Made by a program: the position numbers and the translations under genes. 64,000 bases of DNA from Mustelus asterias (Eukaryota): positions 1-64,000 of the forward strand of contig NW_027590850.1 of the NCBI RefSeq assembly GCF_964213995.1, written 5' to 3'. How positions within the stretch are numbered: the first letter of the stretch is position 1; every line of letters starts with the position of its first letter. Below the pieces are notes generated by a model. That model saw only the letters and a program-made list of their open reading frames with translations. It was not told where the DNA came from and did no database searches. Below, piece after piece: positions 39,766 to 63,150 of the stretch.

Positions 39766-41859
39766 ATGTTCAGGGTTTGCATCGACTTTCTGCTGCTTTT
39801 CACTCTGATCTTTACGGAGGTGACCGGAGAAGCTGAGGTGATGCAGTTCCCTCCGCGGATAGTTATCAGGTGAAGTGCGAAACATATCTATGAACTGCAC
39901 CATCTCCTTTGTTTCTAACGTCCTGCGTTGGTACAGACAGCTCCCGAATCAATCACCCCAGCATCTGGTGATGGCCACTGGCGGGAGCTGGAGGCCAAAG
40001 TCTCCGCCCGCCTGGGTCGCTGGACAGGACTGCTCCGAGTGCTGTCCTACGGGGCGCGAGCTCGCGTCATAAACCAGCTGGTCGCCTCCATGCTGTGGTA
40101 CCGGCTGGTCCCTTTGACCCCTCCCCCTGGCTTTGTCACCGATATCCAGAGAACCCTCGTGCGGTTCTTCTGGGGCAATCGACTGCACTGGGTCCCTGCT
40201 GCGGTCCTGTATCTCCCGCTTGAGGAGGGCGGACAAGGTCTGGTGTGCCTCCGCACTCAGATAGCGACCTTCCGCCTCCAGGCTCTGCAGAGGTACCTTT
40301 ACGTTGAGCCCCCTCCACAGTGGTGTGCCATGGCGACGTATTTCTTCCGCCAGTGGCACGGCCTCAATTATGACGTGCAGCTCCTGCATATCGAACTGGG
40401 GCGTGCTTCGACCGCCCTGCAGGAGTTGCCCGTCTTTTACCAGGACCTCCTCACTGTCTGGAACAAGGTCGCCTCGCGACGCAGCTCTCCCCCGTCAGGA
40501 GTAGCGGCTCTCGTGCGAGAGCCGCTGCTCAGGAATCCGCTCCTCCAGCCGTATAACTTCAGGTGGCTGGCGGAGAGGGGGGCTGTGGACGCCGGGGTGA
40601 CCAGAATCGGGGACGTGCTCGATGGCGGAGGAGCGGGCTGGATGAGTCCCCGCGTGCTAGCTGAGCGCGCGGGGACGTCCGTCCGGCGCGCGGCCAAAGC
40701 CATCCTAGACCTTAGGACGGTCGTGCTCGGCCCCGAAACTGCACGCAAACTTGAGACGGCGCAGGCGTGCGGTGGGATCCCGCCCGAGCGTTCCCCTGTT
40801 CGGGCGGAATTCCGCATTGGCCCAAAGCCTCAGCCCCCTCCCCTGGGTGAGGTGCCCCACAGCCTGAGCCGCCTCGCGGAAATGCCCTCCGTGCCTTTTT
40901 CTACCGCGCGGAGGCGTTTCCTGTGCGGGCTGCTGCTGCACACCTTCCACTACCGCCTCCTCGCCTGTCGCCCGGATACACCTTGGCGGGCCTTGTTGCC
41001 GCCGGGCGGCGGAGGTCCCCGCTGGAGGTCCCTCTACGGAGGGATCTCCCCCAATTACGTCGGGGACCTGGGGTGGAGGGTGATGCATGCAGCAGTTCCG
41101 CACAACCGTAGGGTTCACTGGTTCACGGGCTCCGAAGACTGCCCTTTCTGCGGCCTTGTGGAGTCCGTGGACCATGTCTATGTTGTGTGTCTTAGGCTGC
41201 ACTCCCTTTATGTTTTCCTGAAGAACCTTTTATTGATGTTTTGTTTGCACTTCAGTCCCACGCTCCTGATCTACGGACACCCGGTGCGGAGAGGGGAGGG
41301 TCGGGATGGCGACCTCCTCGTGAACCTGCTCCTGGGCCTGGCGAAACACGCCATTTACCGGTCCAGGCAGCGGGCGATCGAGGGGGCCGTCCATCCTGAC
41401 TGTCTGCCCCTCTACCGCGGCTACGTTCGCGGCCAGGTGTCCCTGGAGAGGGAGCATGCGGTGTCCACGGGCGAGGTTGACACTTTCCGCGCCCGCTGGG
41501 CACCGCAGGGGTTGGGGTGCATTATTGACCCTAATAATCACATTTTAATTTGATGTTTTTAAGTTTCCTTTGTATTTTGATTTCTGTTCGGGCTGTTCCC
41601 CCTCCTTTTTGGGGAGCTGCCCCTTTTACTTTGTCCTGATTTAATCTGAGTTTGTTTACTTGGTTTGGTTTGACCTATAAAGAGGTCTCTCTGAATGATG
41701 GTTTGGTTTGCCCTAAAAAGAGGTCTGGTGATGGCCACAAGAGGAGCCGATCAACACGGGAGGATCGCTGCCTCAATGGGTGAAGGCAACAAACTCAGCA
41801 TCCTGACTGTGAGAGACGCACAGGTTTCAGACACCGCCAGCTATCTCTGCGCCGTGAGC
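39766..41859 (+). pseudogene. TCR V-alpha/delta pseudogene with intronless leader, +1 frameshift near 39870, split by a Tx1-type LINE
   Basis: ATG 39766 MFRVCIDFLLLFTLIFTEVTG-EAEVMQ, stop at 39871; shifted frame gives SMNC...WYRQLPNQSPQHLVMAT [insert] RGADQHGRI...DTASYLCAVS; RSS CACAGTG 41860-41866 / 23 bp / GCCAAAACC 41890-41898. Confidence 0.9.
39979..41723 (+). mobile_element. 5'-truncated Tx1/L1-clade non-LTR retrotransposon (ORF2 C-terminal part)
   Basis: ORF uninterrupted to 41553 with LYLPLEEGGQGL and a C-terminal CPFC...H....C zinc knuckle; T-rich 3' UTR; 15-bp TSD tctggtgatggccac at 39964-39978 and 41724-41738. Confidence 0.9.
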
Positions 41860-46958: not shown

Positions 46959-47240
46959 GTGGGTCTGGTCTGAGGGTCAGAAACATGTCCCCCGGAGCTG
47001 AAAGGAATATCCAGCCCTGTGTTTGTGGGAAGTTACAACTGATCAGAAACTGAACAGCACCCGGTTTTACTTGTAGACTGTGTTGATGACTGGTCTGCCG
47101 GACTGATCGAATTCTGCAGTTAATTTTCTCGGTCATTGCTGGAATAATTTGGGTGCCAGTTTGATCCGATGTTAATGTGATATCCTCTCGGTGTGTGTTT
47201 GAGCGTCTGAGACCTGCCCATAGTGGTTGTATCTATCCAG

Positions 47241-47412
47241 ATTCTGCCTTTTGGCTAAGATCAAGTGCGGTGCCTTTTCCTGTCAGCGTGGATCTTGTAT
47301 ATATATCTTGCGAGGACCATGAATTAGATTCAATTTGAATTTGAATTCGTTTTTGGAGCAATTAGGAGATGGATTCTGGCTTCGCCTGTCCGCTCGGCGC
47401 AATGGTTTTGCA
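47241..47412 (+). pseudogene. Degenerate, near full-length U2 snRNA-derived sequence
   Basis: Colinear U2 landmarks: gccttttggctaagatcaagtg, cgaggac, Sm-site region tttttggagca, ggagatgga, tggttttgca. Confidence 0.7.
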
Positions 47413-48489
47413 ACGTTAAGCAATCATTAATTTATAATCCAGCAGATAGGAGCTCCCGAACAAAATGCAAAGTGCGAAGGTAGGACTGATTTCCATCATA
47501 AACTCCGTACCTGAGCCCTTATTCTGATCAACTCTTCAGAGTCCAATTTCTCCACCTGGAGATGGAGAGGGGTTTGGCTGCCTGAACGTCGCTGTTGCCG
47601 TTGTTTGTCTCCCGATTGTCTGCAGGCATGTGTAAGACTTCCTGTGAGTGCAGCTCATCGGGAATAGTGAGCGCCAGGATAAAACAAAATCACTCCATGT
47701 AATATCATAGTTGAAACTTGAAGAAAAAAAACTACTTCTCTTTCTGTCTTATCATTTGAGGACAATAAGTAAGTGACATAATTTCCATGACTCATCTGAA
47801 ATACACGTTCAAACGTGAATCAATCATATTGGAGTGTGTTTAAACTTTAGGTTGAAATCACGATTGGGAAATGAGATTAAATCTGTTTATTCCACAATTG
47901 CCTCTCTGAAATTGCCCCTCCCCACTCCCAGAACACCCAGCTGCTGCCTTCCCACATTGTCACTGTCCGCTCTGTAAAAGGGAAGTTGAAGCAAGAAAAA
48001 TCTCGTTCTACTCCGCACTCTCATTAATCTGCTATAATGTCATAGCATCACCTCATTTACGTGTGTTCCCAGTGTGTTTTAGTCCTGTATGTGGAAAGCA
48101 GGCTTTCAGTGAGCAGAAACATCCCAAACTGGGATATAATCCGTGCCTTTATTAGGAAAATCGTTATATTCTTAGGGAGAGGGGTGAGGATGAAGTCGCT
48201 GGTCTGGTTATTGTGAGGCGGAGGCGCTGGGTTGCGAATTGTGTCAGAAAAGATTTCACAGACATTCAAAATCAGATTGAACATTGATGGTACATTTTCT
48301 CAGGGATTGTTTCAAATAACTCAATGACAACCTTGTGAAATGTATATGTTATATAACCTGTCCCTTAACCAGCAAAGCACTCTGGCCAAATAGATACGTT
48401 GATCTGAGCGACCTCGAAACGGAGTGAAGATGGGAAAAGGGTTGCAAAGGAAATATCGTCAAAGGACTAAGCGTGAGTTAACGAACCAT

Positions 48490-48826
48490 TCTCGGCCTTT
48501 TGGCTAAGATCAACTGTAGTATGGTCGGCAGCCCATGGTCGGCCGCACTTGGTTGAGGTCATTAGGTTACACTGAAGCTTCATATGTTTCATATGAAGCA
48601 ATTTTTAAAAGCGGCATCTCGGCCTTTTGGCTAAGTTGCAAATGAGCTCAAGTCTTGGAGGAGGAACCTCCCCCTTCTCCAATCAGCTTGGCTCATGTAG
48701 ATCAGGCCCAGGACAGGGTGATTTGGTCGCTCGCCCTGTCTTGTCAGCCTGGATCTGAAATGTCTCAACTTGTTGAGACTCTGAATTGGATTTGATTTGA
48801 TTGAATTGGAAAAGTATTTTTAAAAA
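48490..48826 (+). mobile_element. U2 snRNA-headed SINE-like insertion with two U2 heads
   Basis: Head tctcggccttttggctaagatcaactgtagtat; second head 48617-48635; A-ending tail; 17-bp TSD gtgagttaacgaaccat (48473-48489, 48827-48843); paralogous site near 58520 is empty. Confidence 0.85.
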
Positions 48827-48992
48827 GTGAGTTAACGAACCATAAATGTATCTTTAGTATGGTTGCACGTTAAAAACCAACTGCGGGTCTGCTGTTCTTG
48901 TTGAGTGTTGTGTTTTGATTTGAAATTTTATGCATGATCCGGTGACTCTCTCTGTGAAGACTGAATTGTTGAGTCTGTTTATCAGTGTGAGT

Positions 48993-49005
48993 GCGCCCTC
49001 TGCTG
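48993..49005 (-). promoter_or_regulatory. CTCF-binding motif 26 bp beyond a V RSS
   Basis: CAGCAGAGGGCGC on the minus strand. Confidence 0.72.
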
Positions 49006-49073
49006 ATCATTATCCGGAACTCCCAGTCAGGGGTTTTTATGCGGGGGGTTCGCCATATCTCTGCACCTGTGTG

Positions 49074-49603
49074 TGCTCCGTGGCACAGAAATACACGGCG
49101 CTGTCAGGAAGAAGAGTTCAAGCGATATTTAAAGCAGTGTTGCTTCCTTTGTGTAAATTAGCCGAGAATCTATCTGGGAAATATGGAGACTTATCGGTAT
49201 TGCCCGAGCTATATATCTCCATCAAATATCTCGGAGCTTGCCGGGGATACTGGATGTACCAGAACATCTTCGAAGAACAGCTGGCGAGTATTTACAGTCC
49301 AATGTTATGTTCTGTTCTTCCAGAACCGCTATTTCAGATCGATCTTGAAACATTGAATCTTCAGCATTTGCCCCTGTAACAAAATACAGAAGTTATTCAA
49401 TGTCTGGGAGCGAAGAGAGCCGATGGAACAGACACTGATCATTTAAACATTGACTCAAAAAGAGAAGATGCTGGAATATTTCGGCCGGTCTGACAACACC
49501 TGTGAGCGGGAGAACAGAGATAATGTTTCGAATCGGGATGATCCTTTTCTCAGAATTTGTTGACTCACGGGACAACAAGGCTGTTATTACCAGGAACCAA
49601 CGT
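49074..49603 (-). pseudogene. TCR V pseudogene, paralog of the V at 58722-59263
   Basis: Start codon changed to ACG with a shortened leader, 1-nt deletion just before WYIQYP, degenerate RSS (nonamer ATAAAAACC 49032-49040, spacer 24-26 bp). Confidence 0.85.
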
Positions 49604-50643
49604 GGTGTCTGGTTTAGGGTTCGACAGAAATGAGGCAATAATTAAAATGTGTGACATTGCTGTTCTGATATTAAGTTAGAAATTCATATCAGCGGAAACT
49701 TCACTCACTCAGAAACTGAGGGGCGTTTTCCAGCGACAAGATTGGCTGATCTGTTAGAACTGATGACAGTTGGGCACCAATCAGTGTTAGTTCTGGACTC
49801 CTGAGTTCTGAGTTTCTCTTGTTCCCTGTCCTACTCGGGTTCTCCGGATGTCTCTTCGTTTGAGACCTGTCTGTCTCGCTCTGTCATTCCGCCTCGGTGT
49901 GTCTATCACCACTTGCTCTGTTTCTGACCCTCTCTCTCTCTACACTTGTTCTACCTCCTCCTCTTTCTCCGGTTTTCCCTAAAGTTCAGGGTTCAGACAA
50001 TCCGATTTCTCACAGTCTCGCATTTCAACGGGTCCAGCAAATTACTTATTATATTGGAGCAGCAATAATAGATAAAGTATAATAACCGGAACGCAAGGGG
50101 GACACTATGATGGAAAGAACTTAATGGAAATCACTAAATATCGGGAACAAATGTGAATCCACGGTCACATCTACATCTTGTGTTGATATTTCAAAGCAGA
50201 CATCTTATTGGGACATTGATGTTTGTTTAAAACGATCGCCTTTAACCAGTATGGTTGGGATATTAATTAATTGGGGAATATAAACATAGAATCCCTACAG
50301 TGCAGAACGAGACCAGTCGGCCGATTGAGCCTGCACTCACAACAATCCTACTCAGGCCCTATCCCCGTAACCCCACGTATTCACCCTGTTAATTCCCCTG
50401 ACACAAAGGGGTAATTTAGCATGACCAAAGAACATGACTCACACATCTTTAAACGAAACAAAAGGCATCGCCAGGATTTAAAATAAAGTTGGGATTATCT
50501 CTCATATATACATTCAACTGCATTAAATGACATTGTAATCATAAATGTACTAACAAGAATAATCCGACATAATTATCAGTAATGTCCTTCCGTAATTTGA
50601 GAATTCGATGATTTTTCAGGAAATGGCCATTTACTTCACATCG

Positions 50644-50657: not shown

Positions 50658-51969
50658 TGCCTCACCATGTGTGTGTGCGATTAGTGCAGCGGGTATGGGA
50701 AGGACCACAATGTGATTGTGCCACTGGTCTGGATTTTCAGGGCCTCAAGAGGCTCTCGGAAATCACCCTGTCAGTATCACGTTCTGAGTTATATCAAGTT
50801 ATTTTTCTTTCCCTTCCTGGAATTTCTGATTGCATTTGGGCCATCGTTTTTCTCATTGTACCCCTTTCTTTCTCTCACTGCTTTCTCACTGTTTCTCTTC
50901 TTCTTTGTTCGTTTGACTGTGTTTGTGTCTCTGTCTGTATTGTCTCAATGTAACTGTAACTGTTCCCTCCATGGTTCCTTCACCATGTCTCCATCTATTT
51001 CCCTTCCTGCCACCGTCTCTCCCCCATTTATCTCACTGTCTGCTCCACTGTTTAACTCCCTGCCGCTCCCACATTTTTCTCAGTCCCTTTCATCATGTTT
51101 ATATCGGTGAAACTCCATCTTTACTTCTATCACGGTCTCGGCCTCTGATTCACCCATTGTCTTTCCATCCCTTTATCTTTATTTCTTAGCCTGAAGATTC
51201 CTGTGTTGCAGCGTTTGCTTCCCTCACGGGATCTCCATCCAAATCCTCAGTAATGTTCAATCCGTGTACAGTTCTATTTACAATCGCAACCCGAGGAAAT
51301 CTACCTGTCAGAACGAAAAGTTCCGCGTAAACAGGTCAAGCGCGTGGTAATAAGATTAAGGTTCTTGAGAAGTCGTCACAAACTGGTATAAAAATAAATA
51401 ACATTTAACATGAGCGAGTTAATCCGATCAAATAAAACCACAGACATCTGAGGCCTCTGGGTTTGTACTTAGAAACGTTAATAAGATTAAATATACTCTT
51501 TCACCATTATCGTTAATTTACTCTGACTAAAATGATTGAATTCTGACACACGCACCGATAGATATCGTAATTAATACTATCCTGATGGCAACGGAAACAT
51601 GGTCTATTGCAATATGAAGACAGGCTCTGGTGTCATATAAAGAGCTGATCTCCGGTTGGAAGGAAAGAGTTAAACCGAGAAAGAGACAGAATGACTGAGA
51701 ATGTGACAGAGAGCAAGAGGGTGAGAAAGACGCACTCAGCCTGGGCTACAATTTGATTGGAGAAAGCCAGCCGCACTTCGTCGTCAACTAACAGTAATTG
51801 GTCCAAAGCTAACATCATCTCAGGCAGACTAACCAATCGCAGCACTGAGAAACGCCCCCCAGTTTCCCAATAATTGCAGTTGCCTCTGATCTGAGTTGAC
51901 TCTGTGATATAAACTAGAAGCAGCAACATCGTTTAAACAGTGTGGCTGTTTACTGTCCAATCAGGAACC

Positions 51970-52405
51970 ATGTGTTCCCTGTGTGCTTTACTGATAATAA
52001 TGGTCATGCTGCCCGGTGAGTCTGAGCTCAAATCCTCAGTGTGTGTTTCATGGGTTATATTCACTCAGATTTCTCACACATTCTATATGTTGTTACAGGA
52101 ACCAATGGCCAAGATTCAGTTTTCCAGGACCTGCCCGAATTCACGGTCCAGGAAGGGCAGACGGTAATATTGAACTGCAACTACACAGCACAATACACTG
52201 GCGAGACTCTCTTCTGGTACATTCAACATCCCGGGGACGCTCCGAGATATTTACTGAAGAAATACGGCAAGGGACAGGGGGAAAAGTCTCCAGATTTCCC
52301 TGACCGGTTTTCGGCTGAATTGGACAAAGACAAGAGAACAGTTCCTTTAACAATCACCGGGGTCCATGTCTCTGACTCTGCCGTGTATCACTGTGCGCTG
52401 AGCCC
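51970..52405 (+). CDS. TCR V-alpha/delta segment (leader exon 51970-52015, V exon 52099-52405)
   Basis: MCSLCALLIIMVMLP then gtgagt; GTNGQDSVFQ...LNC...WYIQHPG...DSAVYHCALS; RSS CACACTG 52406-52412 / 23 bp / ACAAAAACC 52436-52444. Confidence 0.93.
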
Positions 52406-52991
52406 CACACTGTTACAGAGACACAGTCAGCCCGTACAAAAACCGGCAAAGGCACTCTCACCTCCTCTCACTGAATCAGATCTGTGAGCTGGATTGTGGA
52501 TTTGTAATTGAACCCAAATCATATAAAGACCAGCTTGGCTGGTCTTTAAGTCCCCTTGAAACACAAGGGGAATCAATTATATTTGCAAAAGTAAATCGAG
52601 AAACAATATTTGCAACATATTATTGATCACGCATTTATCATACATAACTTTAAAATGAGGGCAAACCTCATTTTAAAATCATGCCTTTATTGGTGAAGTT
52701 AAACTTTAACCACTTTTATAAATGACAGTTACTGCAGTAAAGCAGTGTCCTGTTTTTTGGACAATTGATTTGTTCACACGTGACCCGAAAGAGAAGCAGC
52801 TTCGGATCAACAACCCACATCCTGATACCGGAAGCACGGAGTCTGATTCCAGCCAATCAGTTTGCAGAAAACCCAAGTGTCTGAAACTTTATCTGGTGCA
52901 GATGTTGAAGACGTTGATTCAATGCATGCTCTTCTGCTGTGAGCTGTGCTCCGTATTCTTACTGACATTGTTATTATATCACACGGTGCAA

Positions 52992-55422: not shown

Positions 55423-58400
55423 TTTTCAGATCATATGAAATTTCTGCTGAAGTAATTGTCCGGGGAGTTCAGATCAGAACCAGGACCTGGGTTTAATATT
55501 CGGAAGAATTTACAAGGAGTCAAACGCCTGCTTCGTGTCCAACTGGGGCGTCTCTCTGTCGAACTGATGAAAGAAGCTGAGACTCGGGTTTTATCCGCCC
55601 ACATTCACTGGCATCGATTCTACTGGAATCGGAGATGAAGAATTGAAGCCGGAATAAATAAACCCCATCAGTGACCCCATGTTTCCGGTTACAAATCTCG
55701 TCCCACGTGTCTAACTGGGGAACCATTCGCCCCATCAGAACACTGAGTGAACCCAGCTCGGGGTGAATCCATTCACTGGCAGACAGTTCACCAGCTGCCA
55801 ACCCCACAGCACCCCCGCGGATACAGGGAAATGCAGTGAGAGCATCCCGAGACACGGCAGCAAAATATACAGGGTGAAGTTTGGAAAGGGTGTCTTCAAA
55901 TATCCAACTCCCCTTTTACAGAGCAGACAACAACGATGCTGCTACTCAGCATCTGGATTGTGCGGGGAACCTTCCTGACAGGTAATTATGGACCAAACGG
56001 ATTTCATATTCACTTTAATTTTACAAACTTGTTTTTGAACTGAATTTTACGGATTCAGTCGGTCTGATCTGTTTCCGTTCGAACATGTTTTTCCGATCTG
56101 GGTCATGGAGATTCTGTTACCGAAAGCTTATGGTATTTGCTACCAAATAAACCTGTTGGACTTTAACCTGGTGTTGTGAGACTTCTTACTGTGCTTACCC
56201 CAGTCCAACGCCGGCATCTCCACATCACTGCTTCAGTTATACAGGGCGTTGCTGAGACTGCATCTTGAACACTGGCTGCAGCTTTGTCTCTTATTTAAGA
56301 AATGATACAAATGCATTGAAAGTGGTTCAGAGGAGGTTTAATAGATTGCTTCCCAATTTTTTCCGATTTTCCTTGCCTTCACCTCTGACAAAGAGTAATC
56401 CTGACTCAAAATGTTGCCTCCATTCTCTCTCTACAGATGCTGTCAGACTTGCTGAGATTGTCCAGCATTTTCTGTTTTTGTTTCAGATTCCAACAACAGC
56501 AGAATTTTGCCTTTATACCAATTCTTGTTGGATAAGGGAATCAAAAATATCGGGTGTAGAACGGGAATGTGGAAATCTACACAAATAGATCAGCCATGAT
56601 GTAAATAAACGGGGGAGCAGACTCAAAGGGCCAAATGGCCGACTTCTGCTCCGATGTCGAATGTTGGTCACAAATTCCTGAGAATTGTGAACCAAGGCTG
56701 GAAGATTCGCCTTGCTTGTGTTAGTGGGAAAATGTCCAGGAGAACCATCACTGTGAAGGACAGTTCTGGGATTAAAGGTTGCCAGACTGGAAAAGGAAAA
56801 CAATGGAAATAAACCCTTGGGGAGGAAAGAATCACTTTGGGCTGGTTTTTGGAGAAGGAGTGTCAACATTCCAAGGCAAAATAAAATGTATCCATTGAGT
56901 GGATATTTAATGGTGTTAAGAGTAAAAGGGCAAAGTTTAATTTTACAGTTTCAGGGCTATGTTCCCTATAAAAAAGTGTTTAATCATTGTTGCCTCCAGT
57001 TTGTTGGAATAAACATCAGAAAACTTGAAGTTTTGTCATGTGATTCTTTAATTTGTTTACTGGGTTCAGAATTCATTTTTAAAAATTGTTGATCGTCAGA
57101 GATGCTAACAGTTCATTTAAAGCCACACGTTTCGACTTCCCATTTGAGCCTGTGGCACCTTTCTGTCTCTCTATTGCTCGTGTTAATGACAGCCAGGCGA
57201 CGGAGCTGAGGGCTGAATTTAGCTGAGAATAATGGGGCCTGCGCCCCAGTTGGGAAACTGCCATGGGCGACGCACTAATAGAGAGACAGGAAGGTGCTGG
57301 AGGACTGACTGGGAAATGGGCCTCCAACCAATTATATCGGTCACTCAGAACTAAAGAGAAACCTGTCTCTTTAAATACAGATACAGGGAAGAGGCTGCAA
57401 TGAAATCTGTCCCTTTTAACCTGCACAAAAGCAGGAGGCTGAGATTGCCATTCAGCCCATCATGTTCTGCTATCTCTTTGAAAGGACTCTCTGATTCATC
57501 CAACTGCTCTGTTCTTTCCCCACAGCCCTGCAAATTCTTTCCTTTCAAGTCTTTACCCTTTGGAACGATTCTATTGAATCTGCTTTCAGGCAGATCAGAA
57601 CAACTCACTGCGTCAAAAAATAAAATAAAATCTCATCTCCCCCTCTGGCTCCTTTGTCAATTACCTTAGAGGGACTCACTTTCTGTTAAAGAGCCTGCCA
57701 ACCCCTCTCACCCACTTTCCCGAAAGTGCATCAATCTCATCAGGAAAAGTCCAGAAAAATCAAATATTTTTCCTGATAAAAGTTTATTAATGAAACAGAA
57801 CATGATTAAAACAAACAGAAAAAGACTTGAGGATCAAAGACAACCAGAGTAAAAGGATGTTCACAATGTTCTGGACACAAATGGTTTCTCTCTATCTGTT
57901 CCCTGACCTCTTTGTGGTAAAGGCAGAATTCTCTGGACAGTAAATTTAAAAAGAAGTTTGTCGAATGAAAAAGGTTTACTGAACACAGTGGCACAGTGGT
58001 TCCTGCTGCCTTACAGTGCCATTTTGCAATGTTTTATTGGAGAGTTTTTTTTTGTGAATAAAGTATATTTTTGAAAGAAAAAAAAACGTGTCGCAGTGGT
58101 GTTTTTAGCCCTATAGCTGGAGACCTGGGTTTCAGTGAGCAGAAATATCCCAAGCTGAGATATAATCAGTTTGCTCATTCGGAAAATCGCTATATTGTTG
58201 GGGGCCAGGGGTGGGAATGAAGTCGCTGGTCTGATTATTGTAACAGAGAAACAATGGGTTGTGATTTGTGTCAGAAAACATTTGACAGACATTCAAAATG
58301 AGAATGAACATTGATGGCAACTTGTTCTCAGTGATTGTTTTAAATAGCACAATGACAACCTTGCGAAATGTATATGCCAATATAAACTGTCCCTTAGGCA

Positions 58401-58644
58401 GCAAAATACTCTGATCAAACAGACCCGTTGATCAAAGAGACCTTGAAAAGGAGAGTGAAGATGGGGAAAGTGCTGCACAATAATTCACACAGGCAAGAAA
58501 ATGTCATCAAAGGTTGAAGCGTGAGTTAAGGAACTGTGAATGTATTTTTAGTATTGTTGCAAGTTAAAAATTCAACTGTGGCTCAGCCGTTCGTGTTGAG
58601 TGTTGTGTTTTGTTTTGATATTTTGTTTGTGATCCTGTGCGGGA

Positions 58645-58657
58645 GCGCCCTCTGCTG
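58645..58657 (-). promoter_or_regulatory. CTCF-binding motif 26 bp beyond a V RSS
   Basis: CAGCAGAGGGCGC on the minus strand. Confidence 0.75.
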
Positions 58658-58721
58658 ATCACTAACCGGAACTCCCAGTCTGGGGTTTTTGTGCGGTGTT
58701 CGCTTCATCTGTCCCAGTGTG

Positions 58722-59263
58722 GGCTCCATGGCACAGAAATACACGGCGCTGTCGGACAGAACAGCTCTGGCGATATTTAAAGGAACAGTATTGTTTCCTT
58801 TGTGCAAAGCAGCCGAGAATCTATCTGAGAAATCCGGAGACTTATCGGTATTGCCCGAGCTATATATCTTCATCAAATATCTCAGAGCTTGCCCGGGATA
58901 CTGGATGTACCAGAACACAGCTTGAAAAGCAGCTGTCGAGTATTTACAGTCCAGTGTTATGTTCTGTCCTTCCAGAACCGATAATTCAGATCGATCTTGA
59001 AACACTGAATCTTCAGCATTTGCCCCTGTAACAAAACACAGAAGTTATTCAGTATCTGGGAGGGAAGAGAGCCCATGGGACAGACACTGATCATTTAAAC
59101 ATTGACTCAAAAAAGAAAATGCTCGAAATTTTCAGTAGATCTGACAACATCTGTGAGAGGCGAACAGAGATAATGTTTCAAGTCAGGATGACACTTTGTC
59201 AGAGTTTATTGACTCACCGGGCAGCAAGACCATTATTATCAGCAAACAAAGTAAGGAGCACAT
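58722..59263 (-). CDS. TCR V-alpha/delta segment (leader exon 59263-59218, V exon 59025-58722)
   Basis: MCSLLCLLIIMVLLP then gtgagt; GANAEDSVFQ...LDC...WYIQYPG...DSAVYFCAME; RSS CACACTG 58715-58721 / 22 bp / ACAAAAACC 58684-58692. Confidence 0.93.
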
Positions 59264-60284
59264 GGTGTCTGGTTTCGGGTTCGGCAGAAATGAAGCAGTA
59301 TTTGAAATGTGTTGACATTTCTGTTCTGATATTCAAGCGGAAATTCACATCAGCGGGAACGTAATTTACTCTGAAATTATGGGGCGTTTCCCAGCGACAG
59401 GATTGGCCGCTTTCTCAGGATTGATGATCGTCGGGCATCAATCAGCGTTCGCTCGACTAATAAGTTCTGAGTTTCTCTTTCTCCCTGTCTTTCGAGGGTT
59501 CTCTGGCTCTCTCTGCGTTTGTGGCCTGTCGATCTCGCTCTGTTATTCCGCCTCTGTTTGTCTCGCCCCCATTGCTCTGTTTCTGACCGTCTCTGTCCCA
59601 ATAAGTCCATCGGTATATCAGATATGTGTGAGCTGGAATCAAATTTACATCCTGTCTATGTGTGGAGATAACCTCATTAAGAGTTCGAATTGTATCAGTG
59701 TTGCTGTGGTTTCAAATTATGTAACACGAGCATGGTTTTACAGAAAGGCCTGGGATATTAAAAACAAATAAAAGAAATGACAAGGATTCAAGGGTGGCAT
59801 GGACAAGTTGGGCCGAAGGGTCTGTTTCCATGCTGTAAACCTCTATGACTCTATGACTACCTCGATATCCGTTATTTCCCTGAATATCCACAAATCTATC
59901 AACTGCCTTCAAGAAATCAAACGACTGTACAATCATCGCTCTCTTTGACACATAGAGTGCATTAAAGCGAATGTATAATTTTTGACTGAGATGATTTTTG
60001 AGATATGACTCTGATGAGTTTTATTTCATGTTGCAATAACAGCACCAGTGTCTCCCATTCAGATTTGCTCGTAAACCAGAGAAACTACTATAAAGAGGGA
60101 TTTTACATACACTGACAGACATTCAGCACAAAAAACGTGATCATTCGGTTTAACTGGTTTTAATGATATGATTTTGTTTATATTAACAGTTCACAATCCA
60201 GCTCAGAGATCGGATTCAGTGAGAGGAGGTGAGAATGCCTTTGCTGGTTTTTGTACGGACTAACTGCGTCTCTGTAACTGCGGT

Positions 60285-60722
60285 TCAGCGCACACTGTTA
60301 CAGATACACGGCAGAGTCAGAGACACGGACCCCGGTCATATTTAATGAAGCTGTTATCTTGTCTCTGTCCAAATTAGCAGAAAGCTGGTCCGAAAAATCG
60401 GGAGACTTATCCCCCTTCCCCTTGCCGTAACCTTTCAATAAATATCTCGGAGCTTCTCCGGGATACAGGATGTACCAGAATAGAGTTTGGTCAGCGTATT
60501 TTGCTTTGTAACTGCAGTTCAAAATTACCGTCTCTCCTTCCTGAACCGTTAATTCAGGCGGCTCCTTGGAAACTGAACTTTGGCCATTGGTTCCTGTAAC
60601 AACATATCGAATGTGTGAGAAATCTGAGTGAATATAACCCATGAAACACACACTGAGGATCTGAGCTCAGACTCACCGGGCAGCATGACCATTATTATCA
60701 GTAGAACACGCAGGGAACACAT
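60285..60722 (-). pseudogene. TCR V pseudogene, inverted paralog of the V at 51970-52405
   Basis: Intact leader (60722-60677) and V exon from 60593, but ends DSAVYL-stop; nonamer ACAAAAACC 60246-60254 intact while the heptamer position reads ACCGCAG. Confidence 0.88.
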
Positions 60723-61387
60723 GGATCCTGATTGGACAGTAAACAGCGACACAGTTTAAAATATGTTGTTGCTTCTAGTCTGATATCACGGAGTCAACTC
60801 AGATCAGAGGCAGCTTCAACAATAGGCAAATTGGGGGCTTTTCTCAGTGTTGCAATTGGCTGACGTCAGCTGTGGACCAAACACTGCTAGTGGAGGACTA
60901 AACACAGCTGGCTCCCTCCAAACACATTCCACCCCGGGCTGTGTGTGTTTTTCTCACTCTCTTTCTCTCTCCATGAAAGGTGAATAATATTATCAGTTAT
61001 ACTGTCGCTTTCTCGGTTAACCCTCTTTCGTTCGAACTCAATGTCCCCCTTTTTTAGATAGATCTTTCTCTCTAAATAAAGTTAAAAGTGAAATAAATAA
61101 TTTACACTCATTTACTCTGCGGGTATTAATGAGTGCATCCACTGCATGAACATAATAGTAGTTACTGCTTTATTTATACCGGGGATAAGTCATCACCCAA
61201 GTCCACATTGACTTGCGTTTCCACTGGGATCACTCTTATACTGGGAAAGTACTGATTCAATCAGTCATTATTTCTGTCCAGAAACTTCAAAATGTGACAA
61301 CTCTCAGTGTGCCTTTGATATTAGATCACATTTAACAGGTGTCCCCTGACAGATAGGCATCTGATACAGAAAGATTAAAAGTACTGA

Positions 61388-63150
61388 TTTATTAAATTAT
61401 TCACTCCGAAACTCGATATTAAAGCCATGTTATCTTTGCTCTGACCTCGGCCTCAAAATCTTTCAGCAAAATCAGAAATCTTGTATTTTTATGATGCAAT
61501 GAGGGGAAATAGATTTTCCTGTTTTGACACCGTGGACATATCATCAACTCGTTCAGTCCACAACAGAATTTAATGGCTTTGTTGATGCAGACTAACAAAG
61601 TTAATCACCATCTGAATCATGTCTAATAGGATTGTGTGCTTAAAAAGGCAGACACAAGTGAAACTGTAACTGAACTGGAGGAAATGACGCACATTGCGCT
61701 GAACCATTATTTAAACATCGTTCTTCAGAGTAAAGAAATCGGGAAAACCACTCAGACAGTTGAGGAAATCGAGAATCAGTGCGGATCTACTGGACTTTCC
61801 TACAGCTGAACGGGATTTAGACGCCTGAGTGTTTCACACACAGAATGAAGAGGGATCTAGTATATCTAACAAATCATTCTTAAATCTATTGCCTTTAAAG
61901 ATATTTGATTTTGTTGAAAAGCTGATTGTGGTCAATCTCAATGAAGCACCGTGACATGGGTATTACCCAGTGACTCGATTCCTTTTGTTGGTCAGTCATG
62001 TTTGCAATTCAATGTTGCCTATTTCGGAGATATTTCATTCAGAATGAGGAGATAGGTAATTAATAAAAATATATTAATATTAAACATTGAACAGCGAACA
62101 AATATTGGGTAGAACTGGTTGAAATCATTCAAAGGAAGATGAGAATGATGCATTAATAATTGAGCAGAAATCATTGCTCCCTTAGATATTTGCCGGACGG
62201 CCGCTTATAAATGTTGAAGTTCAAGATGAGTTGAGAAATCAGGTTGAAAGAAACGGTTTTTGTCTTGTATTAAGTGACATGGGCTCTCAGTCTAACCATT
62301 AGAGCCTGCAGCAACACAGTGGAGTTGAACATTGTGGTCAGGCCAATTGGCGGTGCTGTACTGTCAGTTGTTTCTGTAGTGTAGTGGTTATCACGTTCGC
62401 CTCACACGCGAAAGGTCCCCGGTTCGAAACCGGGCAGAAGCATTTATTGAAATTATTCATTTCGTATGCGGGAAGTTTTGCATGGTTTCAGTTGCTGAAC
62501 ATTATCCGAATCTCGATGTTGCAGCCATGTTATCTTTGCTCTGAACTCGGCCACAAATGCTCTCAGCAAAATCAGAAATGCTGTATTTTAAGACGCAATG
62601 AGGAAATAAATGTTTGTACTTTGACACCGTGCGCATATTAGCAACTTGTTCAGTTCATAACAGAATATAATGGATTTATAAATGCAGACTAACATAGTTA
62701 ATCACCATCTGAAACATGTGTAATAGTAGTGTGTGCTCATAAAGACAGACACAAGTGAAACTAACTGAACTGGAGGAAATGGCGCACATTTCCCGGAAGC
62801 ATATTTTTAAAATTGTTCTTCATAATAAAGAAATGGGAAAAAATCACTCAGGGAGATGAGTAAATCGAAACTCAGTGTAGATCTGCTGGACTTTTCGATA
62901 GATGAACGGGATTTAGGCGCCAGAATGTTTCACATGCAGAATAAAGAGGGATCAAGTATAACTAGCAGATCATTATTAAATCTTTTCCCTTTAAAGATGT
63001 TTGATATTGTTTAAAAGCTGACTGTCTCAAATAAGCACCATGGGATGTGATTCACCCAGTGACTCGATTTCTTTTATTGGTCAGTCATGTTTGCAATGCA
63101 ATGTTGCATATTCCCGAGATATTCAACTCAGAATGAAGATGTATGTATTA
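61388..63150. repeat. Two diverged tandem copies of the tRNA 3' flank (~61388-62110 and ~62443-63150)
   Basis: Shared blocks such as gccatgttatctttgctctga, gacacaagtgaaact and acccagtgactcgatt. Confidence 0.8.
62370..62442 (+). tRNA. tRNA-Val (anticodon CAC)
   Basis: GTTTCTGTAGTGTAGTGGTTATCACGTTCGCCTCACACGCGAAAGGTCCCCGGTTCGAAACCGGGCAGAAGCA, the canonical vertebrate Val-CAC body with a paired acceptor stem. Confidence 0.93.

Follow-up and report, generated by a model that had tools for sequence, protein, structure and literature searches.

The window, that is, the whole stretch of 64,000 nucleotides that was analyzed, carries at 48490-48826 a 337-bp insert between perfect 17-bp direct repeats (48473-48489 and 48827-48843), as the sequence-only reading had described it. 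The insert, its parts and the related features of the window are listed below.

47243-47435, plus strand: decayed copy of an older U2-derived family of monomers, to which the right monomer of the insert is related
48473-48489, plus strand: left target-site duplication (TSD), 17 bp, exact repeat, present as a single copy at seven empty paralogous sites
48490-48522, plus strand: head, U2 snRNA nt 7-39 with one private change (the family starts at U2 +1)
48523-48568, plus strand: young-subfamily loop, followed at 48545-48568 by a fold-back arm for which pairing with the U2 head is predicted
48577-48599, plus strand: perfect hairpin, longer in younger subfamilies
48600-48610, plus strand: T/A linker, not an Sm site
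48611-48645, plus strand: second U2 head (48617-48635, 19/19)
48646-48697, plus strand: middle hairpin with a variable loop, source not found
48699-48756, plus strand: long stem whose 3' arm is diverged U2 nt 38-60
48762-48779, plus strand: hairpin homologous to the U2 stem nt 69-85, aligned through the monomeric family
48780-48826, plus strand: spacer, AAAGTA motif that also occurs at the LINE terminus, T5 in alignment with the Sm tract of U2, short A tail
48827-48843, plus strand: right TSD, exact repeat of the left one
58021-58081, plus strand: 3' end fragment of a Keno-like LINE, 98% over 61 nt
58521-58537, plus strand: empty paralogous site with a single diverged copy of the target

The site had been claimed to be unfilled in a duplicated flank near 58520, and a single diverged copy of the target was indeed present at 58521-58537, in a duplicated segment with 77-79% identity on either side. 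Among 20 loci fetched with the neighbouring element at 47.2 kb, both flanks were recovered in eight, two of them filled (the window copy and its near-identical duplicate on C315) and six empty. Together with 58521 this makes seven empty paralogous sites, so that the insertion at 48490-48826 postdates most of the segmental duplication. The regions 47200-50000 and 58100-59600 of the window belong to a segment duplicated on many unplaced contigs.

The expectation that the insert starts with the 5' end of U2 held in part: a U2 head is present but the window copy is without U2 nt 1-5, and it has private changes in both heads, while other copies begin at U2 +1. The Rfam U2 score of the insert (36.8 bits) fell below the gathering score of 46 bits because U2 was matched only in fragments. 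The second head at 48617-48635 was confirmed, both perfect hairpins lie where they had been placed, and the long stem announced near 48700-48755 was mapped to 48699-48756. The Sm-like motif aattttt reported after the first hairpin was not upheld; an internal Sm site was ruled out by the missing closing G and by the lack of any Sm-type motif in the near-consensus copy L006, searched with what we take to be the Sm consensus. The T/A linker at this place is likely a remnant tail of the left monomer, and the U2 Sm site has its aligned counterpart in the terminal T5 (48817-48821). At 48636-48643 the family reads ATGCAAAT in 24 of 28 aligned copies, a perfect octamer, about 190 nt from the 3' end; the window copy is altered there. 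No known source of the middle hairpin was found.

The insert is highly structured (folding z-score -7.57; 0/100 shuffles as stable), and across copies the stems are kept and the loops vary. In the predicted consensus fold the fold-back arm pairs with the head; read on the reverse strand, the arm resembles the insertion site at U2 nt 38. An origin of the arm by inverted duplication was examined by comparison with the reversed head, and the similarity was significant in two of the six copies tested. The folding covariation that had been proposed as a check was thin, since both sides changed in only 2/83 pairs and shared stem changes preserved pairing in 48-61% of cases versus 59% for random transitions; strong covariation was not found. 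Several older copies are without AAAGTA before the tail and the younger ones have it in common with the LINE end, from which we infer that the motif was gained later, in younger subfamilies.

The insert was found to be far from single-copy. All 40 scored candidates (of 1,852) matched the element at 98-100% over nearly its full length. An exact 33-mer near the 3' end occurred at least 3,808 times genome-wide and the exact 23-mer spanning the head/body junction of the young subfamily at least 590 times, both exact-motif counts being floors and the controls giving 0. TSD candidates were noted in 49 of 75 copies, a few of them being doubtful, and in 16 of 29 young copies. The 103 near-full copies, a sample enriched for the cluster of the window copy, fell into 25 clusters with a common dimer structure, and the cluster of the window copy held 51 members at 1.1% divergence. 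Sequencing runs labelled as two other organisms contain 55-66% of the sampled words, and no RNA run was listed among those containing them. The host is a shark, its RAG1 showing 93, 91 and 90% identity to the genes of three sharks, 84-85% to those of rays and no more than 82% to others. The number of copies (at least 3,808, with 590 young ones), their shared ends and their distinct TSDs agree with the proposal of a multicopy U2-derived, SINE-like family outside crocodilians, here in a shark host, and it is virtually certain that this is a real retroposon family.

The element is a short, non-coding, A-tailed, multicopy unit with a shared structure. No Pol III promoter was found in it: there is no B box, there are four T4+ runs, and the partial A-box-like 8-mer falls within U2 sequence, the box consensus being used in the form that we assume to be current. 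The T4+ runs and the lack of a B box make Pol III transcription unlikely. A classical Pol III SINE was rejected, as no internal promoter from tRNA, 7SL or 5S is present. The element is not a functional U2 variant gene, because it ends at the Sm tract and is bounded by TSDs, and it is not a SIDE-type non-autonomous LINE, since it is not made from the 5' and 3' ends of the partner LINE; no ribozyme family appeared among its Rfam matches.

The 3' part of the insert, approximately 90 nt, corresponds to diverged U2 38-105, a relation that was established via the older monomeric family. When the SINE 3' part was compared with U2 36-191 directly, the similarity was weak (10/2000 shuffles as good). 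The comparisons of the monomer L193 with U2 and of the SINE with L193 each gave 0/2000. Seven monomer copies, including 47243-47435 of the window, align U2, the monomer and the right half of the SINE, and this alignment puts the hairpin at 48762 on the U2 stem nt 69-85 (stem IIb, we assume) and the terminal T5 on the Sm tract. The hairpin 48762-48779 is therefore not new sequence. Judged from these alignments, both ends of the element derive from U2. The suggested birth from a U2/Tx1 junction did not survive: the LINE 5' UTR matched the body no better than shuffled sequence (1207/2000 as good), so that a Tx1-derived body was rejected, and the 3' part traces to U2. The advised comparison of the tail with Tx1/Keno 3' UTRs gave a similarity that was short and no more than weak (matched by 40 and 185 of 2000 shuffles). 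A U4 module was also rejected, one of six copies having reached 7/500 shuffles and the others not. None of the five U4 genes read was interrupted by an insertion; around the U4 genes on C3 and C1418 (L233, L249-L252) LINE and SINE copies lie within a few kb. At L177 (C1:112.24 Mb) an old left monomer, true U2 4-94 and the 3' part of another LINE are joined, the arrangement being present twice; it is either a chimera or an ancestral form.

The exact U2 38-66 motif occurs 85 times in the genome, and U2 arrays were found with units of 1,833 bp and 8,035 bp on C24 and, for a U2 variant, of 450 bp on C21. The end of the 1,833-bp array (C24:43.06 Mb) reads in order U2 upstream region, U2 1-39, SINE, a repeat of U2 38-54, a truncated LINE, the repeat, a second SINE and U2 38-191, the first SINE being fused to U2 1-39 behind upstream DNA identical in kind to that of the intact genes. 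At C21:28.06 Mb a second type of upstream region is followed by U2 1-39, a SINE and U2 38-185, amid intact U2 genes of 170-175 bits. Among eight C21 gene starts read, four were intact, three ran into a LINE and one into a SINE. U2 38-52 follows directly on SINE tails at six places. There are private changes in both promoter-fused array copies, their closest counterparts in the sample being 97.4% and 83-84% identical, so neither is a current master, and the array copy at 99.3% sits behind the LINE. With 40 candidates scored per DNA search, no promoter-fused copy of the young subfamily of the window copy was detected, and ten more U2-like loci from the 85-match census proved to be retrocopies or chimeras, none with a promoter-fused SINE. 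Several U2 units of the 1,833-bp array (L058-L060) represent a variant that is longer by about 16 bases, its alignment spanning 207 columns at 88%. The 8,035-bp unit (C24 44.81-44.94 Mb) consists of an intact U2, an interrupted LINE and a U2 3' half; it recurs about 16 times, and the LINE copies in these repeats are near-identical.

The LINE that shares these sites is a two-ORF Tx1-clade element with APE, RT and zinc domains and a U2 head of its own, and in the U2 arrays it ends exactly at U2 nt 38, which we take to be the published Keno insertion site. The search with its 5' end gave 115 candidates, and 17 of the 40 scored lie in the C24 arrays. The dispersed sample comprised 17 copies that matched the anchor among 20 fetched regions and, with L051 added, 18 copies. 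All 18 had the U2 head; ORF2 was clearly complete in none of them, the best one coding for 456 + 1036 aa. The element has several traits of Keno, namely an APE endonuclease and RT, two ORFs, and U2-gene insertion with a precise 3' junction; no named Keno sequence was present among its RT hits. SINE and LINE have in common their sites, the exact 3' junctions at U2 nt 38, the head, the terminal motif and the TSD size, and a SINE adjoins the LINE in 4 of 13 independent insertions, one of which lies upstream of a young-subfamily copy. We consider it very likely that the Keno-like LINE is the partner of the SINE. As to the idea of mobilization by a Tx1 or L1 element, this Tx1-clade partner with shared sites and ends is the likely mobilizer.

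In three dispersed copies (L118, L132 and L134), each with a TSD of its own (~16, ~16 and 9 bp), U2 1-37/39 is preceded by C21-type upstream DNA, and the inserted segment stops at the SINE tail. In a fourth (L064), U2 sequence lies on both sides within its own 13-bp TSD; L125 and L117 are of this kind too, with no clear TSD. These TSD-bounded flanks of U2 loci indicate that array-resident copies were transcribed and retroposed at least a few times. The transductions, four among thousands of copies, started upstream of their own unit, i.e., by read-through from arrays and not by initiation at +1. Dispersed C21-type upstream DNA is also fused to the U2 head and the LINE at L133/L195 (C7:56.56 Mb) and L136, which suggests that the LINE is transcribed from the U2 array as well. 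Nine U2-linked copies were scattered in a 62-row tree, made from 10 of the 51 members of the young cluster and every one of the 52 other copies, where supported branches forced at least six origins. Among young copies (29 of 30 loci analyzed), 9/29 start at U2 +1 and 25/29 within nt 1-11, as counted with an anchor that leaves out copies cut beyond nt 33, and under an extension rule that tolerated mismatches none of the 29 extends into array upstream DNA.

Outside U2 genes strict sequence specificity was not found, the dispersed targets matching the U2 site loosely. GY stood at -2/-1 in 21 of 46 dispersed SINE targets versus 6.6 expected, and the matches to the U2 site at -6..-1 and +2..+6 were reached in 0/5000; these values come from a logo re-anchored after a first one, anchored on the first non-A base, had given little signal, and they include two sites in older SINEs. 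In position-ordered samples of the sequence after SINE tails (n = 67), a same-strand head followed in 10 cases, an older body in two and a reversed head in four. The four reversed-head insertions sit at the place in the fold-back arm that resembles the U2 target, a position that suggests nicking guided by sequence.

Altogether, these results favor a reading to which we give a probability of about 0.65: the window insert is a recent copy of a dimeric, multicopy U2-derived retroposon, relatives of which enter U2 genes at nt 38, and which is likely transcribed from U2 promoters and pasted by a Keno-like Tx1 element. A copy inserted at U2 nt 38 would join seamlessly with the gene's own nt 1-39 and would come to lie behind the Pol II U2 promoter, its predicted driver, and RNA of such promoter-fused copies would begin at U2 +1. 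The LINE ORF2 protein would reverse-transcribe the SINE RNA from the A tail and would nick U2 nt 38 or, in far more cases, sites elsewhere that loosely resemble it. Sources at U2 promoters would probably be the main RNA supply, and dispersed copies such as the one in the window would be mostly dead ends. The fold-back arm may mask the splicing-active 5' end of U2. A more ambitious version, tentative and in our judgement slightly short of an even chance, is that of a SINE with its target as promoter: a descendant of U2 would have re-entered U2 genes at the Keno site repeatedly, each time obtaining a Pol II promoter and a fresh head, with a hairpin masking the active 5' end of U2, a LINE-like terminus gained in younger subfamilies, and its own target rebuilt on the other strand, which lets copies accumulate.

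RNA might instead come from host Pol II transcripts that run through dispersed copies, with +1 ends restored when reverse transcription switches to U2 snRNA or another U2-headed RNA via the shared head, the U2-gene insertions being a by-product of LINE targeting. Such switching has a precedent, since recurrent 5' snRNA addition and upstream transcription are set out for SINEU-2 in the available part of Kojima 2015 (PMC4494074), and it would accord with the U2/LINE chimera at L177 and with the failure to find a pristine promoter-fused young copy. The 29 young copies, however, have no host-gene 5' extension in common, the sole repeated extensions seen derive from the U2 array, and discrete subfamilies at ~1-3% divergence imply few sources, so this route seems unlikely as an account of the family. 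It is less probable still that the LINE which moves the element belongs to some other Tx1 or L1 family and that the Keno-like one only has its sites in common with the SINE. Further Tx1-like families (~77-80% to the Keno-like element) do lie near U2 loci and no intact Keno-like copy was seen among the 18 examined, but the exact junctions at U2 nt 38, the head, the terminal motif, the TSD size and the tandem sites are all common to the SINE and the Keno-like LINE. It is very improbable that tandem copies promote each other, the octamer of the second head serving the following copy, whose +1 lies ~200 nt downstream, in the manner of an snRNA distal element. The octamer in 24/28 copies and the same-strand head after 10/67 tails would suit such a scheme; the conservation of the octamer may reflect common descent, though, the host U2 upstream regions examined have no perfect octamer, no proximal element was identified, and in the tandems viewed by eye the younger copy usually lay upstream, where it would not be driven. 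U2 retrocopies do occur in the genome, but neither a single chimeric retrocopy nor an accumulation of separate U2 template-switch chimeras can account for a head/body junction motif that is exact in 590 copies and a dimer structure common to 103.

Among known elements, the SINEU families of crocodilians come closest. SINEU is described from crocodilians only in the consulted portion of Kojima 2015 (PMC4494074), where the targets are Mariner elements, the partners are U2-headed Tx1 elements and transcription is an open question; in the excerpt at hand PMC5786205 still lists SINEU as a recent proposal. As far as that description goes, the crocodilian SINEU-1, -2 and -3 and the shark element are alike in the U2-derived head, a length below 500 bp, the A tail and internal oligo-T, as well as in tandem insertions around the TSD and a Tx1 partner with the same head. 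The shark element is a dimer like SINEU-1D and is built from U2 only, like SINEU-3. It differs in its host, in targeting U2 genes instead of Mariner-N4_AMi, in having copies behind U2 upstream regions, and in its long fold-back stems. Set against the published description of SINEU, in so far as it was accessible, the shark element appears to have originated independently. It works like SINEU and fits its structural definition; the target differs and there is a concrete candidate promoter. The literature searched, with subscription journals and Repbase Reports outside its coverage, contained no shark SINEU, and PMC5499810 on shark SINEs makes no mention of snRNA, SINEU or Tx1.

Keno is presented in the pertinent section of PMC4640811 as an APE-type U2-targeting family. 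Judging by that section, the shark element resembles the U2-targeting LINEs Keno and Utopia in lying within U2 genes with a precise 3' junction, and its partner LINE has the APE-type endonuclease of Keno. Unlike them, the shark element has no coding function and did not arise from the LINE by deletion, and most shark SINE and LINE copies are outside U2 genes. The R2 and R2/R1 SIDEs of Drosophila are short non-autonomous elements in the partner's target RNA gene (PMC3414825, abstract). SIDEs reside in that gene and rely on its transcription; the shark element likewise has copies in such a gene and probably depends on its transcription. SIDEs, which carry a 5' ribozyme, arose from LINEs by deletion and are confined to rDNA, whereas the shark element is made from the target RNA and is found genome-wide.

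If the target does serve as the promoter, the mode of transcription of SINEU-type elements would be explained and a class of Pol II, snRNA-gene-resident retroposons defined. With a young family of which individual loci behind U2 upstream regions can be named, SINEU transcription becomes a directly testable question. The family would represent a second origin of U2-headed retroposons, with steps traceable from the U2 gene through the monomer to the dimer, and a non-coding cargo for a U2-targeting LINE; its hundreds of young insertions are usable as shark markers.

Several other features were observed in the window. Several 69-bp tandem-repeat arrays occupy 2230-16900, and 51655-52524 and 60166-61037 form an inverted duplication (81%). 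A 544-codon open frame on the plus strand (39919-41553) resembles the 3' part of another LINE ORF2, with similar sequence in L177, and a tRNA gene with the anticodon CAC (63 bits) lies at 62370-62442 on the plus strand.
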